Of a DNA stretch of 17,515 nucleotides, positions 1,524 through 17,334 are shown one piece after another (within the stretch, counting starts at the first letter, position 1; each line of letters starts with the position of its first letter). The translations under genes and the position numbers were made by a program. This DNA comes from Armatimonadia bacterium (GTDB lineage: Bacteria; Armatimonadota; Zipacnadia; Zipacnadales; UBA11051), in assembly GCA_039683575.1 (NCBI GenBank), contig JBDKRC010000352.1, positions 1 to 17,515 on the forward strand. Reading direction: 5' to 3'. The notes under the pieces are model-generated. The model made no database searches and was not told the origin of the DNA. It saw nothing but the letters and a program-made list of their open reading frames with translations.

Positions 1524-2171
1524 CTAGGACTTGTCGTGGCAGACCAGCCGGGCGGCACTGGGGCCGGAGATCACGTTCTGCTTGGACAGCCACTTGGCAT
1601 GCCCGTCGTAGAAGGCGATGTTCATGCCGCCATTGTGGCGGTCGGCGAACTGGGTGATGTTGGCGGGAGAACAGATCGGGCAGTAGACGTACGGCATGGT
1701 CGTGACGGCGTTGGTTTTCTCGAAGAAGACGCCGGTCTCAGCCGGCTGCTTGATATCGCCGACGCTGTTGATCCAGGCGGCGTACTTGGTGCGGTACGGG
1801 TAATGGCTCTGAACGACACCATAGCCATGGGCGATAGTGCGAGCAGGCAGGCCATCGGAGGCGTAGTAGCCCGACACAACATCGGCGGCCGACGGACAGG
1901 CCCAGATCTGCTCGTTCTTGATGTACGGGTTGAGCTTCTGCATGCCGTACTTGTTGTCAGAGCCCTCGAAGAGAGCGTAGGGAAGCTGCTCATCGTAGTC
2001 CTGGACGTACTGCATCAGGGCGGTGCCAAGCTGCCTGGCGTTGCTCAGGCAGGCTGTCTGGCGGGCTTTCTCTCGGGCTTTGGCGAAGACGGGGAACAGG
2101 ATCGCAGCGAGGATCGCAATGATTGCGATCACGACCAGCAATTCGATCAGCGTGAAACCGCGGCGAGACAT
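1524..2171 (-). CDS. Prepilin-type N-terminal cleavage/methylation protein, DUF1559-like, with C-terminal H-X9-DG motif
   Basis: Class III signal [29 protein letters not shown], then [27 protein letters not shown], and C-terminal [26 protein letters not shown] upstream. Confidence 0.93.
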
Positions 2172-2204: not shown

Positions 2205-2234
2205 AGTATACCCCTACGCTCTGCCGCTAGTCAA
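2205..2234 (-). promoter_or_regulatory. Sigma70-type promoter for the prepilin gene (TTGACT-N18-TATACT)
   Basis: Minus strand has TTGACT at 2234-2229, an 18-nt spacer and TATACT at 2210-2205, inside the 95-nt gap between the ATPase and prepilin genes. Confidence 0.65.
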
Positions 2235-2266: not shown

Positions 2267-4003
2267 TTAGCCACGCCTGAGTAACGCGGTTACCTGATCG
2301 CCATAGTCTGTCATGCGGTCGGCGTAGATGCCAAGCAGGCTCTCGATGCTGGTAATGCCCTCCTTGAGCTTGCGGAGGGCGTCCTGCTCCATGGGCTGCA
2401 TGCCCTCGTGTATGGCCACCTCCCTGGCTTCCTGCTCGCTGGTGCCGCTTAGCACCATTTCGCGCAGGCGCGGGGTCATGCGCACCATCTCAAAGATCCC
2501 GACGCGGCCCTTGAAGCCGGTGTTGGCGCACTCTTCGCAGCCATTGCCGCGGTATAGCTGCTCGATGCCGTGCTTCTGGAATAGCTCCGAGAGGAAGGGG
2601 ACGTCGGCGACGGCCTCCTGCGCGGAGTAGGCCACTTTGCACTTCTCGCAGACGCGGCGGGAGAGGCGCTGGGCGATAACGCCACGCAGCGCCGAGGCGA
2701 CGAGGTAGGCCTCGATCTTCATCTCCTGGCAGCGGACGAGAGCGGAGGGTGCGTCATTGGCGTGCATGGTACCGAGGACGAGGTGGCCGGTGAGGGCGGC
2801 GCGGAAGGCCATGTCGGCGGTCTCAGTGTCGCGGATCTCCCCCACGAGGATGACGTCGGGGTCCTGGCGCAGGATGGAGCGAAGGTGCTCGGCAAAGGTG
2901 AGGCCGATGTCGGGACGGACGTAGGACTGGTTGATGCCGCCCAGTTGGTATTCGACGGGGTCTTCGACTGATTCGATGTTGACGCCGCCGCTGCGGAGGC
3001 GGTGGAGGGCGGAGTAGAGGGTGGTGGTCTTGCCCGAGCCGGTGGCGCCGACCACCAGTACCATGCCGCGGGAGACGTGGAGCATCGCATCCATGGCTTT
3101 GCCGATGTAGGCGGGGAAGCCAAGCTGGTCCATGCCCACGATGACCCGGGACTTGTCGAGGACACGCATCACGATCTTCTCGCCGAAGATGGTGGGACGC
3201 GAGGAGACGCGGACGTCCACGCGCTTGCTTTGGACGGTGGTGGTGAAGCGGCCGTCCTGGGGCAGGCGGGAGTCGGCGATGTCCATGTCGGCCATGATTT
3301 TGAGGCGGGAGGTGAGCGCGGACTTTACGGTCTCGGGCGGGGACATGACCTTGTGGAGAACTCCGTCAATACGGTACCGTACGAGGAGTCCCTGGCGCTG
3401 GGGCTCGATGTGGATATCGGAGGCCCGCTGCTCGACGGCCTGGGAGATAAGGGCGGCGGCCAGTTTCACAATGGCGGGGGCGTCCATCAACCGGGCGATG
3501 GCGTCCACACCGTCAACCAGGCCGTCGGCGCCCTCACCGTACTTGGCTTCGAGATCCTTGGTTTCTTCTTCGGAGAAGTGGGTCTCGATGGCCCAGGAGA
3601 TGTCGGCGTCGGCGACGCGGACTGGTTTGACGCGCAGGCGGGTGGCGCGGGCGACCTCGTCCTGGGCGTGGATGTCCTCGGGGTCGGACATGGCGACTTC
3701 GACGATGTCGCCTCGGCGCTTGAAGGGGATGGCGCGGATGCGGTCGGCGACTTCTCGCGTCAGGCAGTGCACGAGGGCGGGATCGATCTCGGTCTGCTGC
3801 AGGGACAGCATGGTTTCGGGCAGTTGCTTGCTGGCCTCGTCCACCTCTTCGCGGGCCACAAAGCCGAGGGTGACGACGGTCTCAAGAATCGAGGTGCCGC
3901 CCTGCTTCGCGGCCTGGTAGGCCGTCTGCGCCTGTTGTTTGGTTAGTGAGCCCTGGCGCACCAGGGCGATGATGATCTCACGTTCGCGCTCAAAATCGGC
4001 CAT
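2267..4003 (-). CDS. GspE/PulE/PilB-family type II secretion / type IV pilus assembly ATPase
   Basis: ASDIHIEP, RYRIDGVL, LPQDGRF, Walker A GATGSGKTTT, VEDPVEY, Walker B LRQDPDVILVGEIRD, His box TGHLVLGTMHAND, and tetracysteine CEKC...CEEC followed by GFKGRVGIFE. Start moved from 4147 to ATG 4003 (GGGAGAG RBS; 578 aa). Confidence 0.95.
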   Translation of the reverse strand: MADFEREREIIIALVRQGSLTKQQAQTAYQAAKQGGTSILETVVTLGFVAREEVDEASKQLPETMLSLQQTEIDPALVHCLTREVADRIRAIPFKRRGDIVEVAMSDPEDIHAQDEVARATRLRVKPVRVADADISWAIETHFSEEETKDLEAKYGEGADGLVDGVDAIARLMDAPAIVKLAAALISQAVEQRASDIHIEPQRQGLLVRYRIDGVLHKVMSPPETVKSALTSRLKIMADMDIADSRLPQDGRFTTTVQSKRVDVRVSSRPTIFGEKIVMRVLDKSRVIVGMDQLGFPAYIGKAMDAMLHVSRGMVLVVGATGSGKTTTLYSALHRLRSGGVNIESVEDPVEYQLGGINQSYVRPDIGLTFAEHLRSILRQDPDVILVGEIRDTETADMAFRAALTGHLVLGTMHANDAPSALVRCQEMKIEAYLVASALRGVIAQRLSRRVCEKCKVAYSAQEAVADVPFLSELFQKHGIEQLYRGNGCEECANTGFKGRVGIFEMVRMTPRLREMVLSGTSEQEAREVAIHEGMQPMEQDALRKLKEGITSIESLLGIYADRMTDYGDQVTALLRRG

Positions 4004-4068: not shown

Positions 4069-4097
4069 CTTCGCCATGGGGTATGGTACTTTCCTGC
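4069..4097 (-). promoter_or_regulatory. SigH-like promoter motif GCAGGA-N19-GAAG upstream of the ATPase
   Basis: One copy of the recurrent motif (see findings). Spacer is 1 nt longer than in most copies. Confidence 0.4.
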
Positions 4098-4197
4098 CAG
4101 GGGCCCGGCTCAAAGGGGTCGAGTTGCCCTGCCGCGGCAGTGAACATTGGGCGGGCGCGGGGGGGTCAATCCTACCGATGAGGACAGGTGAACGTTC

Positions 4198-4830
4198 ATG
4201 ATGAAGGCATACTGGCGGCTGCTATCTGGCCTGACGGTACTGGGGATGCTGGCCGGGACCATGGTGCTGGGCGGCTGCCGCGGGGGCGCGCCACCTGCCT
4301 CGTCCACGCTGCCGCAGACAACGGTGCCAAAGGAGACAAAGCCCGTGGAGACCATGACTTCAACAACCCTCAAACTCACGAGCACTTCGCTTCAGGATGG
4401 AATGCCGATTCCGGTGCGGTACACGGCCGATGGCAAGAACCTGTCGCCACAACTGGCCTGGCAGGATGTGCCGGAGGGGGTGGCCGAGCTGGCGCTTATC
4501 GTGGAGGACCCGGACGCGCCAAGCGGGGATTTCGTGCACTGGGTGGTCTACAGTATCCCCTCAAGCATGAACGGGCTTGCCGAGGGCCTGCCGACCGGGC
4601 ATCACCCTGACGCGCAGGTGCCTTTCGTGCAGGGGCGCAACGACTTTGGCAAGGTTGGGTACAATGGCCCGGCGCCGCCGCCGGGGAAGGTACACCACTA
4701 TCACTTCCGGCTGGTGGCTCTGGACCAGAAGCTGAACCTGCCTGCAAATGCCGACAAGAAGGACCTGCGGCAAGCGGTGCGCGGGCATATCATCGCCGAG
4801 GCGGAGCTGGTGGGAACGTATCAGCGGTAG
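4198..4830 (+). CDS. YbhB/YbcL family (PEBP / Raf kinase inhibitor-like) protein, probable lipoprotein
   Basis: YTADGKNLSPQLAW, ALIVEDPDAP, FVHWVVY, QGRNDFGKVGYNGPAPPPG.VHHYHFRLVALD. N-terminal hydrophobic stretch ends in a VLGGC lipobox, followed by a Pro/Thr-rich linker. Start could be 4198 or 4201. Confidence 0.93.
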   Translation: MMKAYWRLLSGLTVLGMLAGTMVLGGCRGGAPPASSTLPQTTVPKETKPVETMTSTTLKLTSTSLQDGMPIPVRYTADGKNLSPQLAWQDVPEGVAELALIVEDPDAPSGDFVHWVVYSIPSSMNGLAEGLPTGHHPDAQVPFVQGRNDFGKVGYNGPAPPPGKVHHYHFRLVALDQKLNLPANADKKDLRQAVRGHIIAEAELVGTYQR

Positions 4831-4908
4831 TGGTTGTCAATCATAGTAGGTATCCGCAGCAGACTGCAGAGGGGCTGAGAAAACCGGGGCATTTCTGTCG
4901 TGCGGCAC

Positions 4909-4935
4909 TTGACCGTGGCCCGGTTTTGGTATATT
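4909..4935 (+). promoter_or_regulatory. Sigma70-type promoter candidate (TTGACC ... extended -10 TGgTATATT)
   Basis: TTGACC at 4909-4914, TG at 4927-4928, TATATT at 4930-4935. The spacer is only 15 nt, so the call rests on the extended -10. Confidence 0.45.
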
Positions 4936-5103
4936 GATATGCTCTGCGGTTGCCATCGGCCGCACTATTATTGACCCCGCGGACATCCCAAACCTCATCT
5001 TGAGCCACGGGAGACGGGACAGGTACAAAGGGGCGCAGCCTCCTGGCTGGGGCCTTTGTACTGCGTTTCGGGCGGGATCCTCAACTCGACAGGAGCACCA
5101 GCA

Positions 5104-6069
5104 ATGTCTTCCATGAATGTCTATTTCAGCGATTACACCATCGCCGAGGAACTCGATATCGAGGAGAAGATCCTCAGCGAGGCCGGGTTTACGATTGTTC
5201 GCGCGCAGTGCAGCACAGAGCAGGAAGTCCTGGATACCATCGAGGGTGTTGACCCCGTGGCAATCGTTACGCAGTGGGCGCCGATTACTCCGGCGGTCAT
5301 GGACAAGTGCCCGAACCTCAAGGTAGTGTCGCGCAATGGCATCGGCGTGGACAACATCGACCTGGCCTACTGCAAAGAGCACGGGATCGCCGTCACGAAC
5401 TCGCCGAAATACTGTACACCTGAGGTTGCGGACCATGCCATGTCGCTGATCCTGGCGCTGGGCCGCAAGCTCGTCTTCACGACTGACAAGGTTCGCGCGG
5501 GCGAATGGGGCACGGATTACCTGATCCCGATCCGCCGGCTGAAGGAATGCACCATGGGCGTTGTGGGCATGGGCGGCATCGGCCGGGCAGTGGTGGAGCG
5601 CGCGCGGCCGTTCTTCAAGGAAGTCATCGGTTTCGATGCGTACGCCAAGGACGTCGTAGTGGACGGCAAGCCGGTTGAGATGGTCTCCCTGGATGAGCTT
5701 CTGAGCCGCTCCGACTTTGTTGACCTGCACGTCCCCGGCACCGCCGAGACCAAGCATCTGATGAACGCCGAGGCCTTCGCGAAGATGAAGCCGAGCGCGT
5801 ACATCGTCAATACCTGCCGCGGTATCGTGGTTGACACCGACGCCATCGTCGAGGCGCTGCGGACCGGTCAGATCGCCGGCGCAGGCCTGGACGTGCACGA
5901 GCAGGAGCCACTGCCGATGGATCACCCGCTGCGCAGCTTCCCGCAGGTCATCATCACCCCGCATGCGGCGTTCTACTCCGAGGAAGCCGTTGATCAGGTC
6001 CGCGCGGATACGGTGATCAACGTTGTGAACATACTGCAGGGCACGGCGCCGATCAACCGGGTCGTCTAG
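5104..6069 (+). CDS. D-isomer-specific 2-hydroxyacid dehydrogenase (SerA/CtBP-like, no ACT domain)
   Basis: RNGIGVDNID, EVADHA, Rossmann GMGGIG, and catalytic Arg/Glu/His in NTCRG, DVHEQEP, TPHAAFYS. Start moved from 5056 to ATG 5104 after AGGAG at 5091-5095 (321 aa). Substrate cannot be assigned. Confidence 0.93.
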   Translation: MSSMNVYFSDYTIAEELDIEEKILSEAGFTIVRAQCSTEQEVLDTIEGVDPVAIVTQWAPITPAVMDKCPNLKVVSRNGIGVDNIDLAYCKEHGIAVTNSPKYCTPEVADHAMSLILALGRKLVFTTDKVRAGEWGTDYLIPIRRLKECTMGVVGMGGIGRAVVERARPFFKEVIGFDAYAKDVVVDGKPVEMVSLDELLSRSDFVDLHVPGTAETKHLMNAEAFAKMKPSAYIVNTCRGIVVDTDAIVEALRTGQIAGAGLDVHEQEPLPMDHPLRSFPQVIITPHAAFYSEEAVDQVRADTVINVVNILQGTAPINRVV

Positions 6070-6092
6070 GCCTGCGGAATACTCGAATACGG

Positions 6093-6128
6093 AAAAGGGA
6101 CGGAGCATAATGCTCCGTCCCTTTTTTT
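6093..6128. terminator. Intrinsic terminator, strongest on + and probably bidirectional
   Basis: AAAAGGGACGGAGCA-TAA-TGCTCCGTCCCTTTTTTT, 23 nt after the dehydrogenase stop. Confidence 0.9.
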
Positions 6129-6209
6129 GTGTTCGCTTGTTCCGGCATGCAGAGCATGCCTGTGTTTGGTGTTCACCTGTTCCGGCATGCGGAGCATGCC
6201 TACCACGCG
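6129..6209. repeat. Tandem pair of palindromic REP-like repeats (family A), 40-bp period
   Basis: GTGTTCgctTGTTCCGGCATGCaGAGCATGCCT at 6129-6161 and GTGTTCaccTGTTCCGGCATGCgGAGCATGCCT at 6169-6201. Core palindrome is GGCATGC-NGA-GCATGCC. 6181-6209 matches the reverse complement of 14750-14778 at 28/29 nt. Confidence 0.85.
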
Positions 6210-6217
6210 GAGAGGGG

Positions 6218-7114
6218 TTAGGGATTGGGCGTCAGGGCGAAGCCGCCTGCTGCGGTGTCGGCGTCTACTGCCACGATGAAGACCTGCGGGGGCTCACTGG
6301 TGGCGGTGTCGAGGGACTGGTAGCCGTTCGCGGAGAGACGGAGGGTGTAGTTGCCGGGCGCGAGGGGCAGGCGGAAGGTGCCGTCTTCCAGATTGACGCC
6401 GCTGGTGGCGGCGGGCTCGGTCTGGCCCTCGGGGTAGGCTTCAACAACTGTGGTGGCCCAGGCTTCCTGCGGCAGGACGCTGCCGGCGAGCGCTCCGTAG
6501 CTGGGTTCGACGCTCTCCACCTGCGTGAGGCGGATGCCAGTGGGCTTGAGCATATAGCGGCCGTTGCCGGTGACGTTGATGGCGCGGGCGGGGTCGAAGT
6601 CCAGGACGATGGTGCTGGTGGTTCCGGCTTCGACGGTGAAGTCACCGACGATCTTCAGGCCGCTCTGCTGCCCGCTGGGCGTCACCAGCGGGAGGCGGAC
6701 CTCGGGAGCATCCGCGAGGGTGGCGTAGTTGACCGGCAGCTCGCCATTGACGTTGGGGGCGAGCACGAGGCGGAGTTGCGAATAGGTGCCAGCCGGGACC
6801 GGAGCCTGGCCCAGGAGCAACTGCTCGTAGTCAAGCTGCATGATGTCCACGACGCGGGCGGGGTTGAACGTGGCCACTACAGGCAGACCGGCGCCGGTCT
6901 CAGTGCCTTCGTCGCCCTCGGGAACGACACGGATTTCACTGATCGCCACCACAACGCTGTTGTAGCCGGACTGGTCGGTGATTGCCACCTTCAGAACGCC
7001 GGTGGTGCCGGTGCGCCCATCGCTATCACTCCCTCCGCCACCCCCGCAGCCCATGATCAGCAATACAGCGGTGCCCAGGCAGACCAGGGCCAGGATCCAG
7101 GATGTTCGTGACAT
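6218..7114 (-). CDS. DUF4382-domain lipoprotein with a C-terminal carboxypeptidase-regulatory-like (prealbumin-fold) domain
   Basis: Lipobox LIMGC plus Gly linker. DUF4382 pattern: LKVAITD, VPAGTYSQLRLVL, TPSGQQSGLKI, IVLDFD, GRYMLKP. C-terminal GALAGSV...DGTFRLPLAPGNYTLRLSANGY. Start moved from 7162 to ATG 7114 after GGAGG (298 aa). Confidence 0.85.
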   Translation of the reverse strand: MSRTSWILALVCLGTAVLLIMGCGGGGGSDSDGRTGTTGVLKVAITDQSGYNSVVVAISEIRVVPEGDEGTETGAGLPVVATFNPARVVDIMQLDYEQLLLGQAPVPAGTYSQLRLVLAPNVNGELPVNYATLADAPEVRLPLVTPSGQQSGLKIVGDFTVEAGTTSTIVLDFDPARAINVTGNGRYMLKPTGIRLTQVESVEPSYGALAGSVLPQEAWATTVVEAYPEGQTEPAATSGVNLEDGTFRLPLAPGNYTLRLSANGYQSLDTATSEPPQVFIVAVDADTAAGGFALTPNP

Positions 7115-7230
7115 AGTGTGTAATCCTCCAGCAGTTTCAGACGCGGGCGCGTTTGAGCGCAATGCGGCTAGCTCTGGGAGGAGTGTTCCCCGCGTGGTTC
7201 AAGGCATTGTCTGGGATGCCGCAAGACTGT

Positions 7231-7257
7231 GCAGGAGGGGGCCGGAGCGTGTTGAAG
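7231..7257 (+). promoter_or_regulatory. SigH-like promoter motif GCAGGA-N17-GAAG upstream of the macroglobulin gene
   Basis: GCAGGA at 7231-7236 and GAAG at 7254-7257. Copy of the recurrent motif. Confidence 0.5.
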
Positions 7258-7366
7258 GTTAGGTCAGTGGGAATAAAGAGGTCACGTGACGTCTCAAAGG
7301 TTCAGACGAGACCGAGAGCAATTGTTGACCACGCCGCTGACGGCGTAGTCGCAGGAGGCAGGAGCC

Positions 7367-10300
7367 ATGTCTGAGCGTACTCGATATCAGGAAGCTGTGG
7401 TGGTCATGATGGCGCTTTTGGCGCTGGTGACGGTGCTGGTGGTGTGCATGTCCCCGCTGCGCGCGCAAGATCTGCGGGCGCTGGGGATGCAGGTTGTGGG
7501 GCCGCGGGAGGTGCTGGCCGACAGCGTGGCGGCGGTGCGGGTCATCGTGACCGACCACGCCGCGCGCAAGCCGGCGCAGGGGGCCCTGGTGTCGATCCGG
7601 CTCGCGAAGCCGGATAATAGTCTTTCCGAGCTCTTGCTCAACGCCCGCGCTGATGGGCGCGGGACCGTTGACATGAGCTTTGAGGTCCCGGCAGTGGCGC
7701 CGGGGGCGTACGAGTTTGTCATCCGCGCGCGATATGGCGGGGATACCGAGGAGACGCGGCAGGCGGTGCGGGTGACGGCTGGCAACCAGGTGTTGCTGAC
7801 GACCGATAAGCCGCTGTACAAGCCCACCCAGGTGGTGCATGTGCGGGCGTTGGCGCTGCGCAAGCCGAGCTTGAGGGCGCTGAAGGGCGAACAGTTGACC
7901 TTTGAGATCAGCGATCCGAAGGGCAACAAGGTCTTCAAGCAAAAGGCCCAGACGAACGACTTCGGCGTGGCCTTTACGGAGTTTCAGCTTGGTGACGAGA
8001 TCAATCTCGGCGACTATCGCGTGGTGTGCCTGCTCGGCGACGAGCGGGTTGAGAAGAACATCACGGTCAAGCGGTACGTGCTACCGAAGTTCCGGGTGAC
8101 TGTCACTCCCGACAAGCAGTACTACCTGCCGGGTGAGACGGCGCGGGGAACGGTGCAGGTGGACTACTTCTTCGGCAAGCCGGTGACGGACAGCAAGGTC
8201 AAGCTGACGCTGAAGACGTTTGACGTGGCTTTCAAAGAGATCGCGGTCCTGACCGGCAACACGGACAGCAAGGGGACGTGGAAGTTTGAGACGCGGCTGC
8301 CGAACGAGTTTGTGGGCCAGCCGCTTGAGCAGGGAAAGGCGTTCCTGCAGTTCGAGGCGGAGGTCACGGACCAGGCCGAGCATACCGAGCGGGCGGTCGT
8401 GTCATCGCGGGTAGCGGCGGCGCCGCTGGAGATCCATGCCGTACCGGAGAGCGGGACGCTGGTGCCGGGCGTCGAGAACATCGTGTATGTGATGGTCTCG
8501 CGCCCGACGGGCGAGCCGGTGAAGGCGCGGGTGCGGTACGAGTTCGCACAGGTGCAGGGGGTGACGGTGAAGGTACTGTCGGAGAAGGAACTCGTGACCG
8601 ATGAACTGGGTCTTGCGGAGCTGAGGGTAGTTCCGGAAGTGGCCGCGAACGCCGGGAATGCAATGGGCAAGCGCGCCGGGCGAGGGTGGGGCCCGCAGTT
8701 GGTGGACTTTGACATCGCGTCGGGCATTGAGCTTATCGTCAGCTTCAGCGCCACGGCAACCGACGGGACGAAGGCTGAGCAGCAGGCGAAGCTGCCGGTG
8801 GGCGGAGGCAGCGCGGACACGGCGCTGCTTCTGCGGACGGACAAGGTGCTGTCGCGGGTGGGTGACACCGTCGAGGCTGTGGCTTACACGGGGGCGCAGC
8901 GGGGCACGGTGTACTTCGATGTGGTCAAGGACCGGCAGACGATGCTCACGCTGGCGGCTGACATCGAGCAGGGGACGGCGAGGGTGCGGATTCCGCTGAC
9001 GCCAGAGCTTAGCGGAACGGTGTGGGTGTCGGCGTACCGGATTCAGCCCCATGGAGAGATTGTGCGCGCGACGCGGCCGGTGTATGTGAACCCAGCCAAT
9101 GACCTCAACATCGCAGTGCGGCCGGACAAGGACGTGTACCGCCCCGGACCGGATAACATCGCGAAGATCAACTTCGCTGTGACCGATCCGCAGGGGCGGC
9201 CAGTGGCGGCGGCGCTGGGTGTGAATGTGGTGGATGAGAGCCTGTTCGCCATTCAGGAGATGCAGCCGGGGCTTGAGAAGGTGTACTTCTATCTCGAAAA
9301 GGAACTGACGACGCCGCGGTACGAGATACATGGGTACGAGATGCCGAACCTGATCGGCGGGCCGGTGCGACGCGGCGAGGCCATACCGCTGGAACAGGAC
9401 GCCCTCAAGCAGGAGGCGGCGCGGGTGATGATGGCGTCGGTGAAGGCGCCGGAGACCGCGGTCTTCTCGCAGGACACGTATGCCGAGCGGCTGGAGCAGA
9501 TGCGGCAGAAGGGGCTGGAGCAACTGCGGCCGCAGGCGCAGAAGATACAGCAGGCGATCGAGAAGTACAACCAGACGCACCAGGGGCATATGCTCAAACC
9601 GAAGGACCTGCTGACGCCGGTGGTGCAGGCGGGGCTGCTGAAGGAGAAGGACCTGTTGGACCCGTGGGGGACGCAATTTGCGCTGGCGGCGGTGGACCCG
9701 CAGCAGGACGTGCTATGGAATGTCATTCTGTGGTCATGGGGCCCCGACAAAGAGAAGGGCACGGAGGATGACCTGTATGTGCTGAGCGGGTCGCCGTGGA
9801 CGGTCTACACGAGCCTGGACGAAGCAAGGGAGATGCGGTGGGACGGCCGCTTCCTCAAGGGCGGGGTTGTAATGGCGCTGCCAATGGCGGCGGCGGCGCC
9901 AGGGGTGGTGCGCGAGGCAGCGATGGACAAGGCCGTTGCGACGAATGCAGCGGCAGCGCCGGGAGCGGGCGAGAAGCCTGTACGGGTGCGGCAGTTCTTC
10001 CCCGAGACACTGCTGGTGGAGCCGGCGCTGATCACTGACGGCAATGGCAATGCGACGCTGAACGTGCCGATGGCAGACGCGATCACCTCGTGGCGGATCA
10101 CGGCGCTCGCCAACAGCATGTTGGGCGCGCTGGGCTCGACCACGGGTAACCTGCGCTGCTTCCAGGACTTCTTCATCGACATTGACCTGCCGGTGGCGCT
10201 GACCCAGGGCGACCGGGTCTCGGTGCCGGTGGCGGTTTACAATTACCTGCCAGGGCCGCAGAAGGTGCGGCTGGAACTGACGAAGGCCGACTGGTTCGAA

Positions 10301-12088
10301 CTGACCGGGCCGGATAAGCACGAGTTGGAGATCGGCGCGAACGACGTGGACGTGCGGTACTTCACGATTACCGCCAAGAAGATCGGGAGTGGCAAGCTGC
10401 TCGTGCATGGCTATGGCAGCAAGATGAGCGATGCCATCGAGCGGGTGGCCGAGGTGGAGCCGAACGGGAAGCTGTTTGAGGTGAGCGCGAGCGGGCGGCT
10501 GACCGGCAGTAAGACCGAGACGCTGAACATCCCCGCCGAAGCCATCGCAGACGCCAGCAACATCCTCGTGAAGGTCTATCCCGGCATCTTCTCGCAGGCC
10601 GTGGAAGGGCTGGACAGCATCCTGCGCATGCCGTCGGGGTGTTTTGAGCAGACTTCGTCCACCACCTACCCGAACGTGCTGGTGCTGGACTATATGAAGA
10701 CCATCGGGCGCATCTCGCCTGAGATCCAGATGAAGGCCGAGGGGTTCATCAACAACGGCTATCAGCGTCTCGTGACCTTCGAGGTGCAGGGCGGAGGGTT
10801 CTCGTGGTTCGGCGACGCGCCGGCGAACAAGGTGCTCACCGCCTTCGGGCTGATGGAGTTCCACGACATGGCGCGGGTACATGAGGTGGACCCGAACCTG
10901 ATCGCACGGACGCAGCAGTGGCTCCTGAGCCAGCAGGGAGCGGACGGGGCGTGGGAGGCGGACAAGGCGTACCTGCACCAGGAGGCGTGGGGGCGCATCC
11001 AGAACAGCAAGCTGCCGCCGACGGCCTACGTGGCCTGGGGCCTGACCTACAGCGCGTGCAAGGAGCCGGGCGTGGCGAAGGCCATTAGCTACCTGCGGGA
11101 GCATGCGGACGAGACCAAGGATGCGTACGTGCTGGCGATGGTCGCCAATGCGCTGGTGAATGCGGACCTGCCCACAGGGGCGCTCGACAAGAGCACCGAG
11201 GCGGTGCTGGACCGGCTGGTGGGGATGGCCAAGCGCAAGGACGGACAGATGTGGTGGGAGACGCAGATGACGGGTATTACCCACAGCAGCGGGCAAAGCT
11301 CCGACCTGGAGGCAACGGGGATGGCGGCACTGGCGCTGATCGCCGCGGGGCGCAACAGCGAGGCGACTGAGGTGCTCAACTATCTCATCGCCCAGAAGGA
11401 CCCGCAGGGGACGTGGTATTCGACGCAGGCGACAACGCTGGCGCTGCGGGCGCTGATGGCCAGCCAGAAGGCGAGCACGAGTCTGGTCAATGGCGAGGTC
11501 AGCGTGATGATCAACGGCCAGCAGGCGGCGGCGTTCGGGCTGACACCGGAGAATGCCGACGTGATGCGCCAGGTGGATGGGCGGAAGTTCATCAAGCCGG
11601 GCGCAAACGAGGTCACAGTGAAGTTCGAGGGCAAGGGCAGTACGCTCTACCAGGTGGTGGGCAAGTACTACCTGCCATGGGAGAAGCTGCGACCGGCTGC
11701 GCGCGAAGAGCTGGACATCAAGCTCGCCTATGACCGCACCACGCTGAACAAGGACGACATGGTGACAGCGGACGTGACGGTGAAGAACAACCTGCCGGGG
11801 ACCACGAGCATGATCATCGTGGACCTGGGCATTCCGCCGGGGTTTGAGGTGCAGAGTGAAGACTTTGCGAACCTCGTTGAGAAGGGGACGCTGCAGAAGT
11901 ACAGCCTGACCGGGCGCCAGATCATCTGCTATCTGGAGAAGCTGGACCCGCAGCAGACGGTGCAGTTCAGTTACCGGCTGCGGGCGAAGTTCCCGATCAA
12001 GGCGCAGACGCCCAAGAGCCGAGTGTATGAGTACTACAACCCGGACCGGCAAGCAGAAGCGCGGCCGGTGGACATGGTGGTGCAGTAG
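7367..12088 (+). CDS. Alpha-2-macroglobulin family / thioester-containing protein (MG domains, bait region, TED, receptor-binding-like C-terminus)
   Basis: 1573 aa with an N-terminal signal peptide. MG2 motif TTDKPLYKPTQVV; YVLPKFRV; VVDES; post-bait VRQFFPET and DAITSWRITA; thioester MPSGCFEQ (Cys codon 10640-10642); GTWYSTQAT; C-terminal SMIIVDLGIPPGF...RVYEYYNP. AGGAGG RBS at 7353-7358. Confidence 0.96.
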   Translation: MSERTRYQEAVVVMMALLALVTVLVVCMSPLRAQDLRALGMQVVGPREVLADSVAAVRVIVTDHAARKPAQGALVSIRLAKPDNSLSELLLNARADGRGTVDMSFEVPAVAPGAYEFVIRARYGGDTEETRQAVRVTAGNQVLLTTDKPLYKPTQVVHVRALALRKPSLRALKGEQLTFEISDPKGNKVFKQKAQTNDFGVAFTEFQLGDEINLGDYRVVCLLGDERVEKNITVKRYVLPKFRVTVTPDKQYYLPGETARGTVQVDYFFGKPVTDSKVKLTLKTFDVAFKEIAVLTGNTDSKGTWKFETRLPNEFVGQPLEQGKAFLQFEAEVTDQAEHTERAVVSSRVAAAPLEIHAVPESGTLVPGVENIVYVMVSRPTGEPVKARVRYEFAQVQGVTVKVLSEKELVTDELGLAELRVVPEVAANAGNAMGKRAGRGWGPQLVDFDIASGIELIVSFSATATDGTKAEQQAKLPVGGGSADTALLLRTDKVLSRVGDTVEAVAYTGAQRGTVYFDVVKDRQTMLTLAADIEQGTARVRIPLTPELSGTVWVSAYRIQPHGEIVRATRPVYVNPANDLNIAVRPDKDVYRPGPDNIAKINFAVTDPQGRPVAAALGVNVVDESLFAIQEMQPGLEKVYFYLEKELTTPRYEIHGYEMPNLIGGPVRRGEAIPLEQDALKQEAARVMMASVKAPETAVFSQDTYAERLEQMRQKGLEQLRPQAQKIQQAIEKYNQTHQGHMLKPKDLLTPVVQAGLLKEKDLLDPWGTQFALAAVDPQQDVLWNVILWSWGPDKEKGTEDDLYVLSGSPWTVYTSLDEAREMRWDGRFLKGGVVMALPMAAAAPGVVREAAMDKAVATNAAAAPGAGEKPVRVRQFFPETLLVEPALITDGNGNATLNVPMADAITSWRITALANSMLGALGSTTGNLRCFQDFFIDIDLPVALTQGDRVSVPVAVYNYLPGPQKVRLELTKADWFELTGPDKHELEIGANDVDVRYFTITAKKIGSGKLLVHGYGSKMSDAIERVAEVEPNGKLFEVSASGRLTGSKTETLNIPAEAIADASNILVKVYPGIFSQAVEGLDSILRMPSGCFEQTSSTTYPNVLVLDYMKTIGRISPEIQMKAEGFINNGYQRLVTFEVQGGGFSWFGDAPANKVLTAFGLMEFHDMARVHEVDPNLIARTQQWLLSQQGADGAWEADKAYLHQEAWGRIQNSKLPPTAYVAWGLTYSACKEPGVAKAISYLREHADETKDAYVLAMVANALVNADLPTGALDKSTEAVLDRLVGMAKRKDGQMWWETQMTGITHSSGQSSDLEATGMAALALIAAGRNSEATEVLNYLIAQKDPQGTWYSTQATTLALRALMASQKASTSLVNGEVSVMINGQQAAAFGLTPENADVMRQVDGRKFIKPGANEVTVKFEGKGSTLYQVVGKYYLPWEKLRPAAREELDIKLAYDRTTLNKDDMVTADVTVKNNLPGTTSMIIVDLGIPPGFEVQSEDFANLVEKGTLQKYSLTGRQIICYLEKLDPQQTVQFSYRLRAKFPIKAQTPKSRVYEYYNPDRQAEARPVDMVVQ

Positions 12089-12090
12089 CG

Positions 12091-12118
12091 GCAGGAACTT
12101 CTGAACCGGATGGTGAAG
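12091..12118 (+). promoter_or_regulatory. SigH-like promoter motif GCAGGA-N18-GAAG upstream of mscL
   Basis: GCAGGA at 12091-12096 and GAAG at 12115-12118, 48 nt before the mscL start. Confidence 0.5.
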
Positions 12119-12166
12119 CTAACGTTATTGTACTATAAGCCACCAATACGAAGGGGAGTGAACCGG

Positions 12167-12601
12167 GTGCTGAAAGAGTTCAAGGAATTTGCGCTGAAGG
12201 GGAATATGTTGGACCTGGCGATAGGCATCATCATCGGTGCAGCCTTCGGCACTGTGGTAAAGTCGCTGGTGGAGGACGTCATCATGCCGCCCATCGGGCT
12301 GCTGCTGGGCAATGTGAACTTCTCGGACCTGTATGTCAACCTCTCCGGGCAGCAGTATCCTTCGCTTGCCGCTGCGACGGCCGCCGGTGCACCGGTGATG
12401 CGTTACGGGAATTTCCTCAACCAGATCATCAGCTTTGTGGTTGTGGCCTTCGCGGTCTTCATGATCGTCAAGGTGATCAACCGGATGCGGCGGGAGAAGG
12501 TCGAGGAGCCGACGGAGAAGTGCTGCCCGTTTTGCTGCAGCGACATTCCCGTCGCGGCGACGCGCTGCCCGCAGTGCACGTCGGAGCTAGAGGCGCACTG
12601 A
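12167..12601 (+). CDS. mscL: Large-conductance mechanosensitive channel MscL with a C-terminal Cys-rich (zinc-ribbon-like) tail
   Basis: (M)[43 protein letters not shown]...[11 protein letters not shown]; tail CCPFCC...RCPQC. Start placed at GTG 12167 after AAGGGGAG (144 aa). Confidence 0.96.
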
Positions 12602-12620
12602 GAAGCAACTCATCGGTAGG

Positions 12621-12656
12621 CAGAAGGGCCCGGCAGTGATGCCGGGCCCTTTTCTG
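12621..12656 (+). terminator. Intrinsic terminator after mscL (possibly bidirectional)
   Basis: AAGGGCCCGGCA-GTGA-TGCCGGGCCCTT, 12-bp stem with a TTTT tract. Confidence 0.85.
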
Positions 12657-12669
12657 TTCGTAGGGTAGC

Positions 12670-12737
12670 GAGGCGGGCGAGACGCCCGCACTACGCGGGG
12701 TGGCTGGCTGAGGCGGGCGAGACGCCCGCGCACCTAC
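12670..12737 (-). repeat. Tandem pair of GTAG-headed REP-like palindromes (family B), 40-bp period
   Basis: GAGGCGGGCGAGACGCCCGC occurs exactly at 12670 and 12710, each followed closely by CTAC. On the minus strand this reads GTAG-(n)-GCGGGCG-TCT-CGCCCGC. Confidence 0.85.
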
Positions 12738-12745
12738 GGCCGTGG

Positions 12746-13555
12746 CTACAGCAGGAACTGGTCGAGATACTTTTTGCTTAGCAGCAGCATCTTCGTGCGC
12801 ATTCTGTGGGCGCGGTCTCCCCAACCCCACACGTCCCCGTGCGGTTCGAAGGAGAGGTACCCGCTGTAGTCGGCCTCATACAGGAAGGCCATGACCTTGC
12901 CCCACTGGATGTCGCCCATGCCGGCGGGCGGCTGGGCGGCGAGCTCGCCGTTGTGGTAGAGGTGCTCTTTGATGTGGACGTAAGCGATCTTGTCGCCGTG
13001 GCGGCGGAGGACTTCGAGGTAGTCATCGCCGTGGTGCATCCAGTTGGCAGGATCGAACTTGATGCCTACGTCCGGCAGGCTTTCCCAGACGGCCTCGTAG
13101 GAGTAGAGGCTGGTGAAGAAGCTGTTGCCATGGACGGCGTAGAAGGCCGGCCGGAGGCCTGCCTGGCGCATCTTGTCCATGAACGGGGGGAAGACTTCGG
13201 TAAAGGCGGCGACATTGGCGGCGAGGTCCCCATCCGGGACCTGCCCGCCTCCGGTGACGAACACCTCGGCGCCGAGGGTGTGCGCGAACTCAATGGCCCG
13301 GTTGAGCATCAGGTGAGCTTCCTGGCGTTCGGCGGCGTCGGGGGAGGTGTGGTTCCACCCCCAGAGGCCCAGAGCGGAGGCTTTCACGCCATAGTCGTCG
13401 AGAATCGTCCGCATCTGAACGACCGTGTCGGCGGTCACGTCTTTGAAGGTCGTCCACCAGTTGAACTCCAAGCCGGTGAAGCCGTGGTCCGCGGCGAAGA
13501 GGGCGTCTTCTTTGAGCTTCTGTAGGTCATTGCTACCGATAAAGCCGAGTTTCAT
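12746..13555 (-). CDS. Sugar phosphate isomerase/epimerase family protein (xylose isomerase-like / AP endonuclease 2 TIM barrel)
   Basis: AADHGFTGLEF, AIEFAHTLGA, GIKFDPAN, IAYVHIKE, GMGDIQW, YSGYLSFEPH. GGGAGG RBS upstream. Confidence 0.88.
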   Translation of the reverse strand: MKLGFIGSNDLQKLKEDALFAADHGFTGLEFNWWTTFKDVTADTVVQMRTILDDYGVKASALGLWGWNHTSPDAAERQEAHLMLNRAIEFAHTLGAEVFVTGGGQVPDGDLAANVAAFTEVFPPFMDKMRQAGLRPAFYAVHGNSFFTSLYSYEAVWESLPDVGIKFDPANWMHHGDDYLEVLRRHGDKIAYVHIKEHLYHNGELAAQPPAGMGDIQWGKVMAFLYEADYSGYLSFEPHGDVWGWGDRAHRMRTKMLLLSKKYLDQFLL

Positions 13556-13603
13556 CAGGGGCCTCCCAAGGGTAAGAGGAACAAGTAGCTCGTGTGCCTG
13601 TTT

Positions 13604-13641
13604 CTTCTCTGCGGCAGGTGCGAGACCTGCCTGAGCCGAAG
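13604..13641. promoter_or_regulatory. Overlapping divergent SigH-like promoter motifs
   Basis: Plus: GCAGGT 13614-13619, N18, GAAG 13638-13641. Minus: GCAGGT 13630-13625, N17, GAAG 13607-13604. Each points at one of the flanking divergent genes. Confidence 0.5.
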
Positions 13642-13672
13642 TGAGTAAGCATTGAAATCGTGGAGGTGTCGC

Positions 13673-14740
13673 ATGTTTCGTCTACTGTCGCTGTGCACGC
13701 TAAGCTTGTTGGTCTTGTCTGCTGTGAGTGAACCCTTGATGGCGCAGAACCAGGCGCCCACCAAGACCCTGTTTGTCACGTTGCTCACCAAGACTCAACA
13801 GCCGATGAAGATACCGGGCATGGAGAACATGCCCCAGATGCCGGGCATGCCGACCGGAGCGCCGACGTGGAACGTCATCGGGCGCGCGAAGTACGGCGAG
13901 AAGCCTGTGGAGCCGCTGTTTGTGACCGTGCCGACGGACCTGAAGCTGCCAGACAACAAGCTGATGCTGCATCTCCCCAAACCGGCTACGACAGAAGGCG
14001 GTCCAGGCCGACCCGGCGGGCAGGGCGAGACGAAGAATGTGGAAATGGTCAACAAGCTGTACTGGCACCCGGACGAGGCCAAGGGGCCGGTCACCGAGAG
14101 CTTCAAGATCAAGGGTGGCAAGATGAGCGGGGGCGGGATGCCGGGGATGGCCATGCCCAATCTCGACGATATCATCATCGCGCAGGAGGGGTATGAGGCT
14201 GAGGGCAACGAAAGCAAGCTCCCGGTGAACGTCAAGGGACAGGGCAACTATGTGTGCAACACCGGCGGGACGGCGACGCTGGACGGCTTCCTGCCGCCGC
14301 TGCAGGTCACCTCGCCCGACATGAGCAAGCTCACGCCCGAAGAGGGCATACTGGTCAAGTGGCAGCCTATTGCAGGGGCGCGGGGCTATCTGATCTCGGC
14401 CAACGGCATGAATATGGACAATGCTGACGAGGACAACATGAAGATGACCACGATCTCGTGGTTCAGTACCCTGGTGCAGCCGCCGATGCGCATTCGCGGC
14501 GGCTATCAGCAGGAGACGACCATCGCGGACGATCTGGCCAATGGGATACTGCTGCCGGGAAATACCACAAGCTGCAAGATCCCGGGCGGGATCTTCAATG
14601 ACGTGATGATGCTGATGATCCGCGTTGAGGCCATCGGCAACGACTTCTACAGCAAGGCCGACGGCAAGACCGTCTTCGGCACCATCCGCTCGGAATGGGA
14701 TGGTATAGGGATGATGATGAAGATGGGCGGCGAAGGGTAG
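13673..14740 (+). CDS. Secreted Met/Gly/Pro-rich hypothetical protein
   Basis: ATG 13673 follows GGAGGT at 13662-13667. Sec-type signal peptide MFRLLSLCTLSLLVLSAVSEPLMA/Q. GC3-biased codons, 355 aa, followed by a terminator. No family recognised. Confidence 0.85.
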   Translation: MFRLLSLCTLSLLVLSAVSEPLMAQNQAPTKTLFVTLLTKTQQPMKIPGMENMPQMPGMPTGAPTWNVIGRAKYGEKPVEPLFVTVPTDLKLPDNKLMLHLPKPATTEGGPGRPGGQGETKNVEMVNKLYWHPDEAKGPVTESFKIKGGKMSGGGMPGMAMPNLDDIIIAQEGYEAEGNESKLPVNVKGQGNYVCNTGGTATLDGFLPPLQVTSPDMSKLTPEEGILVKWQPIAGARGYLISANGMNMDNADEDNMKMTTISWFSTLVQPPMRIRGGYQQETTIADDLANGILLPGNTTSCKIPGGIFNDVMMLMIRVEAIGNDFYSKADGKTVFGTIRSEWDGIGMMMKMGGEG

Positions 14741-14749
14741 TCCTCCGAG

Positions 14750-14778
14750 CGCGTGGGAGGCATGCTCCGCATGCCGGA
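14750..14778 (+). repeat. REP-like palindrome, family A (third copy)
   Basis: CGCGTGGGAGGCATGCTCCGCATGCCGGA, 28/29 identical to the reverse complement of 6181-6209, with a GTGG head. Confidence 0.85.
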
Positions 14779-14795
14779 CTAACCTTCAGTGAATC

Positions 14796-14834
14796 CAGCG
14801 GGGCGCACCATTCGGTGCGCCCCGTTGTTATTCT
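14796..14834 (+). terminator. Intrinsic terminator
   Basis: CGGGGCGCACC-ATTC-GGTGCGCCCCG followed by TTGTTATTCT. Confidence 0.75.
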
Positions 14835-14835
14835 A

Positions 14836-14888
14836 CAGTAGGGCAGGCGGCTCGCCTGCCGGACGCGGGCGAGCCGCCCGCGCTACTG
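14836..14888. repeat. Inverted REP doublet (REPIN-like), family B
   Basis: CA-GTAG-GGCAGGCG-GCT-CGCCTGCC-GGA-CGCGGGCG-AGC-CGCCCGCG-CTAC-TG: two GTAG-headed hairpins in inverted orientation. The right arm differs from the 12670/12710 core only in the loop. Confidence 0.8.
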
Positions 14889-14891
14889 GCA

Positions 14892-17216
14892 CTAGACCAG
14901 CCGTCCTCCGCCTTCCGCCACCACCTTCCCGTTTTCCCACCTCACAGCCACTGGTCCCTCAGGGGTTAGCAACCTCGCCTCAGGCTCCGTACGCGGGCCG
15001 AAATGCACCGGGTGGAGCTGGACCCCATCTTGCTGCAGGCGCGCGCCCCAGAGCTTCGCCTGGAGCCACGGAAGGGGATGTGCGGAGGTGGCCACGCCAT
15101 GGTCGCCGGAGCCGTCGCGGTTGGCGGCCCAGCTTTCGGCCCACGCGTCGAGATACTCGGGCAGATTGAACCGCATCGCCACATAGCCCAGGAGCCTGCC
15201 CAGCGAGTTCTGGTGCCACATCGCCTTCGGGTACGGCAGGTCCCACCACTTGCCGCTGTAGGCGTCGAAGTGGCGCGGCTGGCCGTTGAAGTCGTGCTGG
15301 TACCCCCAGCCCATCACTCCCTCCCCCGGCGGCTTCGGTCCTCCTGCCTCGAACTGCTTCACCCCGGTATCGTGCCTGAAGCGCACCGCCATCAGCCAGT
15401 CGGCGAAGCGCTTGACGGTCGAGAGCAGGGCTTCGTCATCCGGGAAGAGCTCCAGGTAGTCCAGGACGCCCTCGGTGGCCATGAGGCCCATCCAGGGCTT
15501 GGTGATGTAAGCGCCCCACTGGTGCAAGCCGGTGCCGCCGGCCTGATCGCCGAAGCTGCCGTTGGGCCGCTGCGAGTGGTGCACCATCATCGCGCCCTCG
15601 TGGGCGATGCGGCGGTAGTGTTCATCGGCGGTGTAGCGGTAGAGCATGACGGCGCTGCGGACGTACTTGGCATCGCGGCCGACCGCCAGGCGCGGCCAGG
15701 AGTTCTTCTGCAGCCAGTGGGCATTGTCTACGACGGCCTGTGACGTCTCGAGCAGATAGGGCACGCCTGTTTCGAGATAGGCGGTGATGGGGCCGAGGAG
15801 ACGGTTCATGGGCTCGGCGAAGGCGTGGTGGCCGAAGCCGTGCATCCGCACGAGCTTGGCGGCATGGTCAATGGCGATGTCGGTGAAGCTCCAGGCAGCG
15901 CGCAGGGCGTTGTCGTAGTCCGCGGTGTCCCCGGACAGGTAAGCCAGCAGGAACATGGCCCAGGGAGCCTCACCCTCCCAGCCAGCCTCGCTGCGGCCAC
16001 GGTCGAGAGGACCGGGATGGGGGTTGGCGTGGCGCGGCAGGGCGCCGTCCTCAAAGCCGCCCTTGACGATGTAGTCACGGCAGTACTTGCGGCAGGATTC
16101 GAGGGTTTGATCGTAGGCGTTGGAGACCGGCAGGAGGGAATCGGGGAAGAGTTCCTCGCAGACGCCGTACCACCACGCGGGCGCGACATAGCGCGCAACT
16201 CTCGGCGAGCGGTCCGAGAGGCTCAGCGAGAAGCGCAGCGTGCGGGCCATGCCGCGCGGGAACATGCGGTCGGTGGAGTGGTAGAGGAAGGGGTCACCGG
16301 TGGTGGTGCGGGCCCAGGCGCCGCTGTAGAGGTCCACGCCCTCGTAAGGCTGCCAGACGAGGAAGCCGTCGGCGGCGTCGAGATGGCCGGGCTGCCCTGC
16401 TGTCGCCAGACGACCGGCTTCGCTGACGTCAAAGCGCACCCCGCCGAGTTCCGGCAGGCCCTGCTCGCCGGTCCAGGGGCCGCGATGGGAGCCGAGGTCG
16501 GCGGTGCCGTCGTCATAGCGGATGCCGACCACGGGGACCACGTCGGCCAGATCCTCCCCATCGTCGAAGAACTTGCTGTTGACGTGGTGGGCATAGACCT
16601 CGCAGACGCCGTTGCTGTGCAGGCGCGCGTAGATCCGGCCGTTGAGCCAGTTGTGGTGATGGAGGAACTCGTTGTTGTAGCTCTGTCCCTGCCGCATCTC
16701 GGTCATGCCGAAGCCCTTGCGGGGAATGGCCCCGCCCATCTCGACCACGAGGCACTCAGGCGTCTCTTCCAATACCACCATCCGGCAGCACTCCCACCAG
16801 TGAACCTCTCCGTCGTGCCGCAGGCCCATGGCGAGACCGACGGAATGACCGCCCCAACTGATCCGGAGCAGGTGCCGCTCCCACATGAGGCCCTCTTCCT
16901 CGCACTTCGCGAACAGCTCAGCCTCAGCGCTGGGGTGCGCAGTCACCGGAGAGGCAGGCGGGGTGACGGATAGCTCTTCAGGCGGAGTGTTTTCGGCATC
17001 TGCGACCAGCAGCAGCCTTCGTGGCGAGCCCTCGGCCTCCCCCGGCCACTGCCCCAGCGGCTGAACGTACGTGGGCGTGTTGCCCAGCGCGAGGGGCCTG
17101 GCAGCGGCTCTCGGCCACGGCAGGGAGGCAATGCAGAGCCCGGCGGGCTCATCCGGCCCCAACCGTTTCAGTTTCAGTTCATCGAGGTACCCGAGCAGCA
17201 AATCTGACGACGACAT
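14892..17216 (-). CDS. Hypothetical protein, probably YetA/PcRGLX (exo-rhamnogalacturonan lyase)-like with an alpha/alpha-toroid C-terminus
   Basis: Long ORF with GC3 bias. Start moved from 17306 to ATG 17216 (AAAAGGAG upstream; 774 aa). N-terminal LPWPR...VQPLGQWP...EGSPRRLLL and central GMARTLRFSL recall YetA-like proteins. C-terminal helical repeats (YLSGD, YLETG..YLLE, YRYTADEHY) and KPWMGL suggest a toroid. The CDS is secure; the family is tentative. Confidence 0.7.
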   Translation of the reverse strand: MSSSDLLLGYLDELKLKRLGPDEPAGLCIASLPWPRAAARPLALGNTPTYVQPLGQWPGEAEGSPRRLLLVADAENTPPEELSVTPPASPVTAHPSAEAELFAKCEEEGLMWERHLLRISWGGHSVGLAMGLRHDGEVHWWECCRMVVLEETPECLVVEMGGAIPRKGFGMTEMRQGQSYNNEFLHHHNWLNGRIYARLHSNGVCEVYAHHVNSKFFDDGEDLADVVPVVGIRYDDGTADLGSHRGPWTGEQGLPELGGVRFDVSEAGRLATAGQPGHLDAADGFLVWQPYEGVDLYSGAWARTTTGDPFLYHSTDRMFPRGMARTLRFSLSLSDRSPRVARYVAPAWWYGVCEELFPDSLLPVSNAYDQTLESCRKYCRDYIVKGGFEDGALPRHANPHPGPLDRGRSEAGWEGEAPWAMFLLAYLSGDTADYDNALRAAWSFTDIAIDHAAKLVRMHGFGHHAFAEPMNRLLGPITAYLETGVPYLLETSQAVVDNAHWLQKNSWPRLAVGRDAKYVRSAVMLYRYTADEHYRRIAHEGAMMVHHSQRPNGSFGDQAGGTGLHQWGAYITKPWMGLMATEGVLDYLELFPDDEALLSTVKRFADWLMAVRFRHDTGVKQFEAGGPKPPGEGVMGWGYQHDFNGQPRHFDAYSGKWWDLPYPKAMWHQNSLGRLLGYVAMRFNLPEYLDAWAESWAANRDGSGDHGVATSAHPLPWLQAKLWGARLQQDGVQLHPVHFGPRTEPEARLLTPEGPVAVRWENGKVVAEGGGRLV

Positions 17217-17266
17217 GAGAAGTAACAGCTCCTTTTGATACCGGCTTGTTAGCCAACAACGGGTCA

Positions 17267-17334
17267 GTTCAGCATGACTGCAGTGGTATCCTCCCGCCGC
17301 GGCCAAGCAGGTCCGGACAAGTTGCCCGCCGAAC
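17267..17334. promoter_or_regulatory. Back-to-back divergent SigH-like promoter motifs
   Basis: Minus: GGAGGA 17294-17289, N18, GAAC 17270-17267. Plus: GCAGGT 17307-17312, N18, GAAC 17331-17334. Confidence 0.45.

Follow-up and report, generated by a model that had tools for sequence, protein, structure and literature searches.

Which factor reads the sequence that stands in front of seven genes on one contig of an Armatimonadia bacterium, and how widely is that sequence used? The window, i.e. the whole stretch of 17,515 nt analysed here, is contig C352 of a 6.23-Mb genome (352 contigs, 63.5% G+C). An initial annotation described a two-box motif in it, G[CG]AGG[AT]-N17-19-GAA[GC], at seven intergenic sites, each pointing at the next start codon, and attributed it to a sigma factor resembling SigH (Spo0H) that would drive a very large, near-housekeeping regulon in an apparent non-Firmicute. 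In textbooks SigH is a Firmicute factor for the transition state, sporulation and competence; its consensus in Firmicutes such as B. subtilis is RNAGGA-N17/18-GAAT, with a -10 element of the form R-n-n-G-A-A-T. We found that the motif marks a class of promoters spread over the whole genome and oriented with their genes; the class has ~700 members, stands in front of ~22% of the genes that have an upstream region of their own, and is probably read by a factor of the SigH family.

A two-box promoter motif in the window and in the genome

Reading of the sequence and a regular expression (regex) scan of both strands agreed on the seven copies and yielded no others in the whole window, compared with ~1 match that simple arithmetic from base composition would predict for 2 x 17.5 kb. 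All seven are intergenic and oriented toward the next start codon, with 32–110 nt between GAA and the start (Table 1). For genome-wide counts, genes were taken from a simple codon-usage caller written for this analysis (4769 genes, 88% coding). With a spacer of 18 nt, 159 of 316 matches were intergenic and directed at a gene, and with 17 nt this held for 56 of 123; N19 gave only 11 of 307, and the control spacings N14–16 and N20–22 gave 6–19 each. Spacings 17 and 18 are far above chance, N19 is not, and the excess is 10- to 15-fold.

A two-block weight matrix (PWM), iteratively refined from the genome sites and applied with a class threshold of at least 11 bits, gave the motif GnAGGw-N14/15-G-n-c-GAA, which equals AGGw-N17/18-GAA. 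The -35 box is nearly invariant (G.91, n, A 1.0, G 1.0, G 1.0, A.38/T.41); the -10 box carries G at -3 (.69), a favoured C at -1, and GAA at.93/.99/1.0. The 766 PWM sites are spaced by N18 (544), N17 (219), N19 (3) and N16 (0), so that two of the three spacings originally proposed were enriched while N19 lies outside the class. The relaxed GAAG/GAAC version of the -10 box did not hold up: the base after GAA is uninformative (A.18, C.29, G.24, T.29) and the additional information sits at G(-3) and C(-1). Nor did the weaker copy suggested before the PEBP/YbhB gene, CCAGGG-N18-GAGT at 4097-4124 (+), which scores below 5 bits and falls outside the class. The aligned sites also display a weak excess of A (.35) 11 nt past GAA.

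Enrichment over shuffled and coding controls and a strand bias had been named in the initial annotation as checks, and both were found. At the class threshold, a PWM match is present in 736 of the 3239 upstream regions that are 50 nt or longer; dinucleotide shuffles yield 50 matches, and length-matched coding pieces yield 18 in sense and 14 in antisense orientation. In 2067 tandem intergenic regions, 285 matches point the same way as the downstream gene and 9 the other way; the matches in the 471 divergent regions number 217 in one direction and 214 in the other, and just 7 occur in the 417 convergent regions. Divergent regions carry the motif both ways in 109 cases and one way in 202, and among the 109 we saw no favoured distance between the two copies. 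The enrichment at two spacings together with the orientation bias toward genes establishes that the promoter class is real.

How does this class relate to promoters of the sigma70 type? Upstream regions without the motif are enriched for TTGACA and TATAAT. A sigma70 PWM built in the same way matches 398 regions at 11 bits or more, compared with 28 in shuffles, and 349 at 12 bits or more. Only 16 regions combine a SigH-type match (at least 11 bits, 736 regions) with a sigma70-type match (at least 12 bits, 349 regions), which suggests that the motif itself serves as promoter and is not an add-on to sigma70 boxes. For every recognisable TTGACA/TATAAT promoter there are about two of the SigH-type class, which is the commonest upstream signal in the genome. 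It is lacking at 44 of 45 tRNA genes, the remaining one having a weak match of 10.5 bits; many tRNA genes carry TTGACA-N17-TATAAT ~40 nt upstream. Likewise, the motif is absent before all five core genes checked (dnaK, rpoB, two groEL and rpsJ): dnaK and rpoB score 18.8 and 16.0 bits with the sigma70 PWM, and the two groEL genes and rpsJ have neither promoter class directly upstream. Judged by these boxes, the primary sigma factor appears to retain the canonical TTGACA/TATAAT specificity. Since tRNA genes, dnaK and rpoB use canonical boxes, the predicted regulon is very large, as first proposed, but not near-housekeeping; its members are mostly accessory.

SigH-family sigma factors and co-occurrence with the motif

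The genome holds 18 genes of the sigma70 family: two SigH, an RpoD, a SigB/F/G-type, a FliA/WhiG-type, and factors resembling the extracytoplasmic function (ECF) group (~13 ECF-type). The search for a SigH/Spo0H orthologue, which had also been suggested, thus returned two genes. We used the NCBIfam SigH equivalog models NF006148 and NF006145 with their curated cut-offs (208 and 212 bits): paralogue 1 (C263:940-1587) reaches 256.7 and 242.4 bits, and paralogue 2 (C81:8442-9131, +) 230.1 and 218 bits. The proteins, 215 and 229 aa long, contain Sigma70_r2; a 58%-identical relative has Sigma70_r2 and Sigma70_r4_2. This agrees with the short build of the SigH family, with regions 2 and 4 in ~200–230 aa. 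Relatives of the SigH protein lie mainly on contigs of Armatimonadota, Armatimonadia, Chthonomonadales and Fimbriimonadales (45–60% identity), followed by Clostridia (37–41%), in agreement with the earlier suspicion that the host is no Firmicute: it belongs to the Armatimonadota.

An alignment of five Armatimonadota and five Clostridia SigH proteins (37–41% overall identity) shows conservation of region 2, and the region 4.2 helix K-x-(I/V)-D-N-A-x-x-R-x-x-x-K is invariant in all ten (K191, D194, N195, A196, R199, K203). Gene order is informative as well. On a 982-kb contig of a related Armatimonadia genome (L020) the order is sigH, tRNA-Thr, tRNA-Tyr, tRNA-Thr, tuf, rpmG, tRNA-Trp, secE, nusG, rplK; in the window's genome the same three tRNA genes follow sigH before the contig ends. 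Firmicute sigH is placed in a cysS-nusG neighbourhood in PMC3364868.

Two observations concern the other factors. Paralogue 2 (locus L013) is flanked on one side by a gene with a weak, sub-threshold CvpA/Colicin_V match and a small open reading frame, and on the other by glyQ; this neighbourhood contains no ribosomal-cluster context and no obvious anti-sigma gene. RpoD (C113:20779-22854, -; locus L001:1006-3081; 691 aa) carries two Big_5 Ig-like domains between regions 1.2 and 2, an unusual filling of the RpoD non-conserved region.

We then compared motif and factor across the phylum. In 151 genomes sampled evenly from Armatimonadota, the strict pattern GCAGGW-N14/15-GNCGAA was counted against a reversed-pattern control, and NF006148 was searched in the same genomes. 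Among the 106 genomes with a SigH match the motif/control ratio has a median of 2.6 and is at least 2.5 in 58; among the 45 without a match the median is 0.83, with 3 at that level. SigH is hence found in 58 of the 61 motif-enriched genomes, and two of the three exceptions are only 80% and 88% complete. The families without SigH (f9 0/13, f13 0/3, f14 0/4, f21 0/5, f33 0/9) have ratios of 0.8–1.3. The control family SigB/F/G was found in 142 of the 151 genomes, including all sampled members of f9, f13, f14 and f33; its presence does not track the motif. Genomes of the phylum carry between 0 and 3 copies of SigH.

From the protein families, the promoter geometry and this co-occurrence, we infer with good confidence that the motif is read by SigH and not by some other factor. 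The two blocks would be the -35 (G-n-A-G-G-w) and -10 (G-n-c-G-A-A) elements of promoters for RNA polymerase with a SigH-family sigma factor, the conserved region 4.2 helix reading the -35 box and region 2 the GAA box. Transcription would start ~9–12 nt past GAA and leave leaders of 20–40 nt, as implied by the peak distance between motif and start codon. The class marks ~700 mostly monocistronic genes, to the exclusion of tRNA genes and the core genes checked, and would form one giant regulon of secreted polymer-degrading enzymes, peptidases, prepilin-like proteins, sugar catabolism and many unknowns, which could be controlled through the level of one sigma factor or through its activity.

Several points weigh against this assignment. 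On the protein side, TIGR02859 (spore_sigH, the endospore-former model) scores 242.9 and 219 bits, below its cut-off of 294.8, which would place both proteins within the SigH family but outside the sporulating-Firmicute core. The motif is absent upstream of both sigH genes, giving no sign of autoregulation, and nothing indicates which of the two paralogues reads it; a cross-tabulation of spacing, W base and base after GAA for two sub-motifs matching the two paralogues revealed no association by eye. The final T of GAAT, as known from Firmicutes, lacks conservation in our sites (T.29). On the comparative side, the SigH-positive families f5, f11, f28 and f30 and four SigH-positive f15 genomes have ratios near 1: presence of SigH is insufficient for enrichment of the exact pattern. 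With relaxed patterns, enrichment can be seen only where genes have been called, since matches in phase within coding sequence otherwise drown the signal. Related genomes are non-independent, and the SigH-less families may share one or few losses. Orthologues of mscL occur in 4 of 16 other genomes of the taxonomic class, and the motif stands at the same distance in one of these four (L103, 15.2 bits); footprinting thus lends the motif no support, and the low conservation suggests fast promoter turnover. Finally, the gene coordinates from our caller are crude, and metatranscriptome contigs are too sparse to read start sites or strand: four runs of one study contain 7–15% of the sampled words, and their Logan contigs are only 160–1000 nt long, one of them spanning the promoter region 13556-13672.

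Which other explanations would account for the motif? It could be read by another alternative sigma factor, ECF-type, SigB/F/G-like or FliA-like, with the co-occurrence of SigH a phylogenetic coincidence. The 18 sigma70-family genes offer candidates, and the SigH-positive families f5, f11, f28 and f30 without enrichment of the exact pattern would fit. We regard this as improbable: SigB/F/G is present in motif-less families, SigH is present in nearly all motif-enriched genomes, and the geometry of the motif matches published SigH promoters. The consensus types of the other factors (GTTT/GGGTAT for SigB/F/G, TAAA/GCCGATAA for FliA, GGAAC/CGT for ECF) do not resemble AGG...GAA, and we know of no ECF regulon of ~700 promoters.

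Still less credit can be given to the idea that a global transcription factor binds the two boxes, or that they are a variant promoter which RpoD reads in this phylum. It draws on the two Big_5 domains inserted in RpoD and on the rank of the motif as the most frequent upstream signal of the genome. However, the motif is asymmetric, strictly gene-oriented and fixed at spacings 17/18, it shares only 16 regions with sigma70 boxes, tRNA genes, dnaK and rpoB show canonical RpoD-type promoters, and RpoD regions 2, 3 and 4 fit standard families. An origin of the motif by chance or from the composition of a GC-rich genome, conceivable in that short degenerate boxes are frequent by chance and in-phase spacings are common within genes, is already refuted by the spacing, control and orientation tests: the excess is limited to two spacings, shuffle and coding controls are low, orientation is 285 to 9, and the motif exceeds its reversed-pattern control in many genomes.

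Predicted regulon and features of the window

Genes were sampled from the leading 20 kb of each of the 20 longest contigs: of 256 called genes, 166 have an upstream region of at least 50 nt, and 46 of these carry a motif of at least 11 bits. Pfam assigned to the 46 members PcRGLX-like, heparinase, GH38, GH20 and GH123 enzymes and other large secreted proteins; eight DUF1559 prepilin-like proteins; M14, M20 and TldD peptidases and GDSL lipases; and KDPG aldolase, PfkB kinase, GFO/IDH/MocA and zinc dehydrogenases and MTHFR. Twelve proteins have no family. Among the ten sampled genes with a strict sigma70 pattern are those for pyruvate kinase, an EPSP-synthase-family enzyme, a glycosyltransferase, two recombinases and a regulator of GntR/LacI type. 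In the genome as a whole, a hydrophobic N-terminus is found in 42% of the motif class compared with 24–31% in the other classes, and 13.8% of its proteins reach at least 800 aa compared with 5–9.5%. The regulon is accessory, and the members sampled resemble a set of genes for scavenging and for the cell surface.

A simple regex finds a prepilin-type N-terminus in 157 genes of the genome, 69 of which lie behind SigH-type promoters. DUF1559-type pseudopilins are a very large family in this genome. Among T2SSE/T2SSF genes with an upstream region of their own, 4 of 12 carry the motif, near the genome rate of 22%, which gives no special link to a competence/pilus core regulon.

The features of the window are collected in Table 1. 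The -35 boxes of the divergent promoters between the TIM barrel gene and the 355-aa protein gene form an inverted repeat at 13614-13630 (GCAGGT, five bases, ACCTGC). Sigma70-like boxes had been predicted for four genes: they are present before pgl and the prepilin-like gene, and the strict sigma70 pattern found none before tkt or the dehydrogenase gene. Some gene labels of the initial annotation could not be substantiated: the 355-aa and 774-aa proteins ('Met-rich' and 'YetA-like') have no Pfam match, and neither does the 48-aa fragment at the contig end that had been called an M14 peptidase.

Table 1. Promoter motifs and genes in the 17,515-nt window; bits are scores on the SigH-type PWM, and distances run from motif to start codon
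Feature	Position	Strand	Remarks
Sigma70-type promoter TTGTCA (618-623)-N17-TATCAT (641-646)	618-646	+	upstream of pgl
pgl	678-1442	+	Pfam Glucosamine_iso
DUF1559 prepilin-like gene	1524-2171	-	Pfam N_methyl and SBP_bac_10
Sigma70-type promoter TTGACT (2234-2229)-N18-TATACT (2210-2205)	2205-2234	-	upstream of prepilin-like gene
T2SSE/MshEN ATPase gene (PilB/GspE family; type II/IV secretion)	2267-4003	-	Pfam PF00437 (4e-124) and PF05157; start 4003 from gene caller, ribosome-binding site visible
SigH-type motif GCAGGA-N19-GAA	4070-4097 (regex 4097-4069)	-	12.5 bits despite spacing penalty; strong boxes, atypical spacing; 66 nt before ATPase gene
SigH-type motif GCAGGA-N17-GAA	7231-7256 (regex 7231-7257)	+	11.8 bits; 110 nt before alpha-2-macroglobulin gene
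Alpha-2-macroglobulin gene	7367-12088	+	Pfam A2M/TED/MG2 domains
SigH-type motif GCAGGA-N18-GAA	12091-12117 (regex 12091-12118)	+	16.0 bits; 49 nt before mscL
mscL	12167-12601	+	Pfam MscL
Xylose-isomerase-like TIM barrel gene	12746-13555	-	start 13555; Pfam AP_endonuc_2
SigH-type motif GCAGGT-N17-GAA	13605-13630 (regex 13630-13604)	-	15.3 bits; 49 nt before TIM barrel gene
SigH-type motif GCAGGT-N18-GAA	13614-13640 (regex 13614-13641)	+	15.1 bits; 32 nt before 355-aa protein gene
355-aa protein gene	13673-14740	+	no Pfam match
774-aa protein gene	14892-17216	-	start 17216; no Pfam match
SigH-type motif GGAGGA-N18-GAA	17268-17294 (regex 17294-17267)	-	13.7 bits; 51 nt before 774-aa protein gene
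SigH-type motif GCAGGT-N18-GAA	17307-17333 (regex 17307-17334)	+	16.8 bits; 37 nt before contig-end gene
Gene truncated by contig end	from 17371	+	start 17371; 48-aa fragment, no Pfam match

Two further PWM matches lie inside genes. One, of 12.7 bits at 1374-1400 (+), sits within the 3' end of pgl and points antisense into the prepilin-like gene; it may have arisen by chance or may act as an antisense promoter. The other, of 11.8 bits, is located at 14302-14328. The metatranscriptome libraries mentioned above are labelled wastewater, and their short contigs are 95–100% identical to parts of the window, so the organism or a close relative is present in those samples.

Comparison with known systems and implications

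The SigH-dependent promoters of C. difficile listed in PMC7438776 (Table 3) read AGGA/T, 17 or 18 bases and GAA(T/A), as counted in four of them. Their geometry is that of the class described here (AGGw-N17/18-GAA), including a purine three bases before GAA, and bears out the SigH-like geometry that had been noticed in the window. Compared with Firmicute SigH promoters, C is preferred just before GAA. The proteins share with Firmicute SigH the NCBIfam equivalog family, the rpmG-secE-nusG-rplK neighbourhood and the residues of regions 2 and 4.2. B. subtilis SigH is said to affect ~10% of the genome (PMC3364868), and it has in common with our class a broad gene set rather than one pathway. The predicted number of ~700 promoters is far above the 41 to ~53 assigned to C. 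difficile SigH in PMC7438776. The presence of two SigH paralogues also differs from the B. subtilis and C. difficile systems. Moreover, the members sampled here encode hydrolases, peptidases, pilin-like proteins and enzymes of sugar catabolism; they are not sporulation or division genes. To our knowledge, Armatimonadota are not known to sporulate.

A role outside sporulation is familiar from the SigH-like/ComX factors of non-sporulating Firmicutes, which drive genes of a machine resembling type IV pili according to PMC3364868. These belong to the wider SigH family, and here, too, a type II secretion/type IV pilus ATPase gene and 69 of the 157 prepilin-like genes carry the motif. However, SigH-like/ComX proteins are highly diverged, with 21–24% identity to B. 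subtilis SigH in the same paper, whereas the proteins described here pass the SigH equivalog cut-offs. Their regulons are small, unlike the present class, and T2SSE/T2SSF genes carry the motif near the genome rate (4/12), unlike the pilus control by SigH-like/ComX. The arrangement of one alternative sigma factor for hundreds of scattered genes is known from RpoS in E. coli and SigB in B. subtilis. Here, sigma family and promoter are different, and the alternative class outnumbers recognisable primary-sigma promoters ~2 to 1.

The Chthonomonas genome has been described as disorganised, with related genes scattered, and its abundant sigma factors were proposed as a possible regulatory mechanism (PMC4959169); for Fimbriimonas very few transcription factors were noted (PMC4072686). 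A single promoter class before hundreds of scattered genes fits these remarks. Our full-text literature search, with most subscription journals outside its coverage, found no paper pairing Armatimonadetes or Armatimonadota with SigH or a promoter motif.

A clear SigH orthologue, a conserved gene context and a recognisable promoter thus come together in a phylum other than Firmicutes. They offer a testable mechanism for the coordination of scattered genes in Armatimonadota, and the promoter model can serve, in hundreds of uncultured genomes, to annotate transcription units and to assign genes to the regulon. They also bear on the role of SigH before sporulation evolved. More tentatively, the SigH orthologue may act in much of Armatimonadota as a second, quasi-principal sigma factor, with a single promoter class replacing operons and dedicated transcription factors for the co-regulation of hundreds of scattered scavenging genes; we consider this possible, though somewhat less probable than its negation. 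If true, it would explain the 'disorganised' layout and the scarcity of operons and regulators long noted in the genomes of Chthonomonas and Fimbriimonas, and it would suggest that the ancestral job of SigH was a starvation and scavenging regulon, not sporulation.

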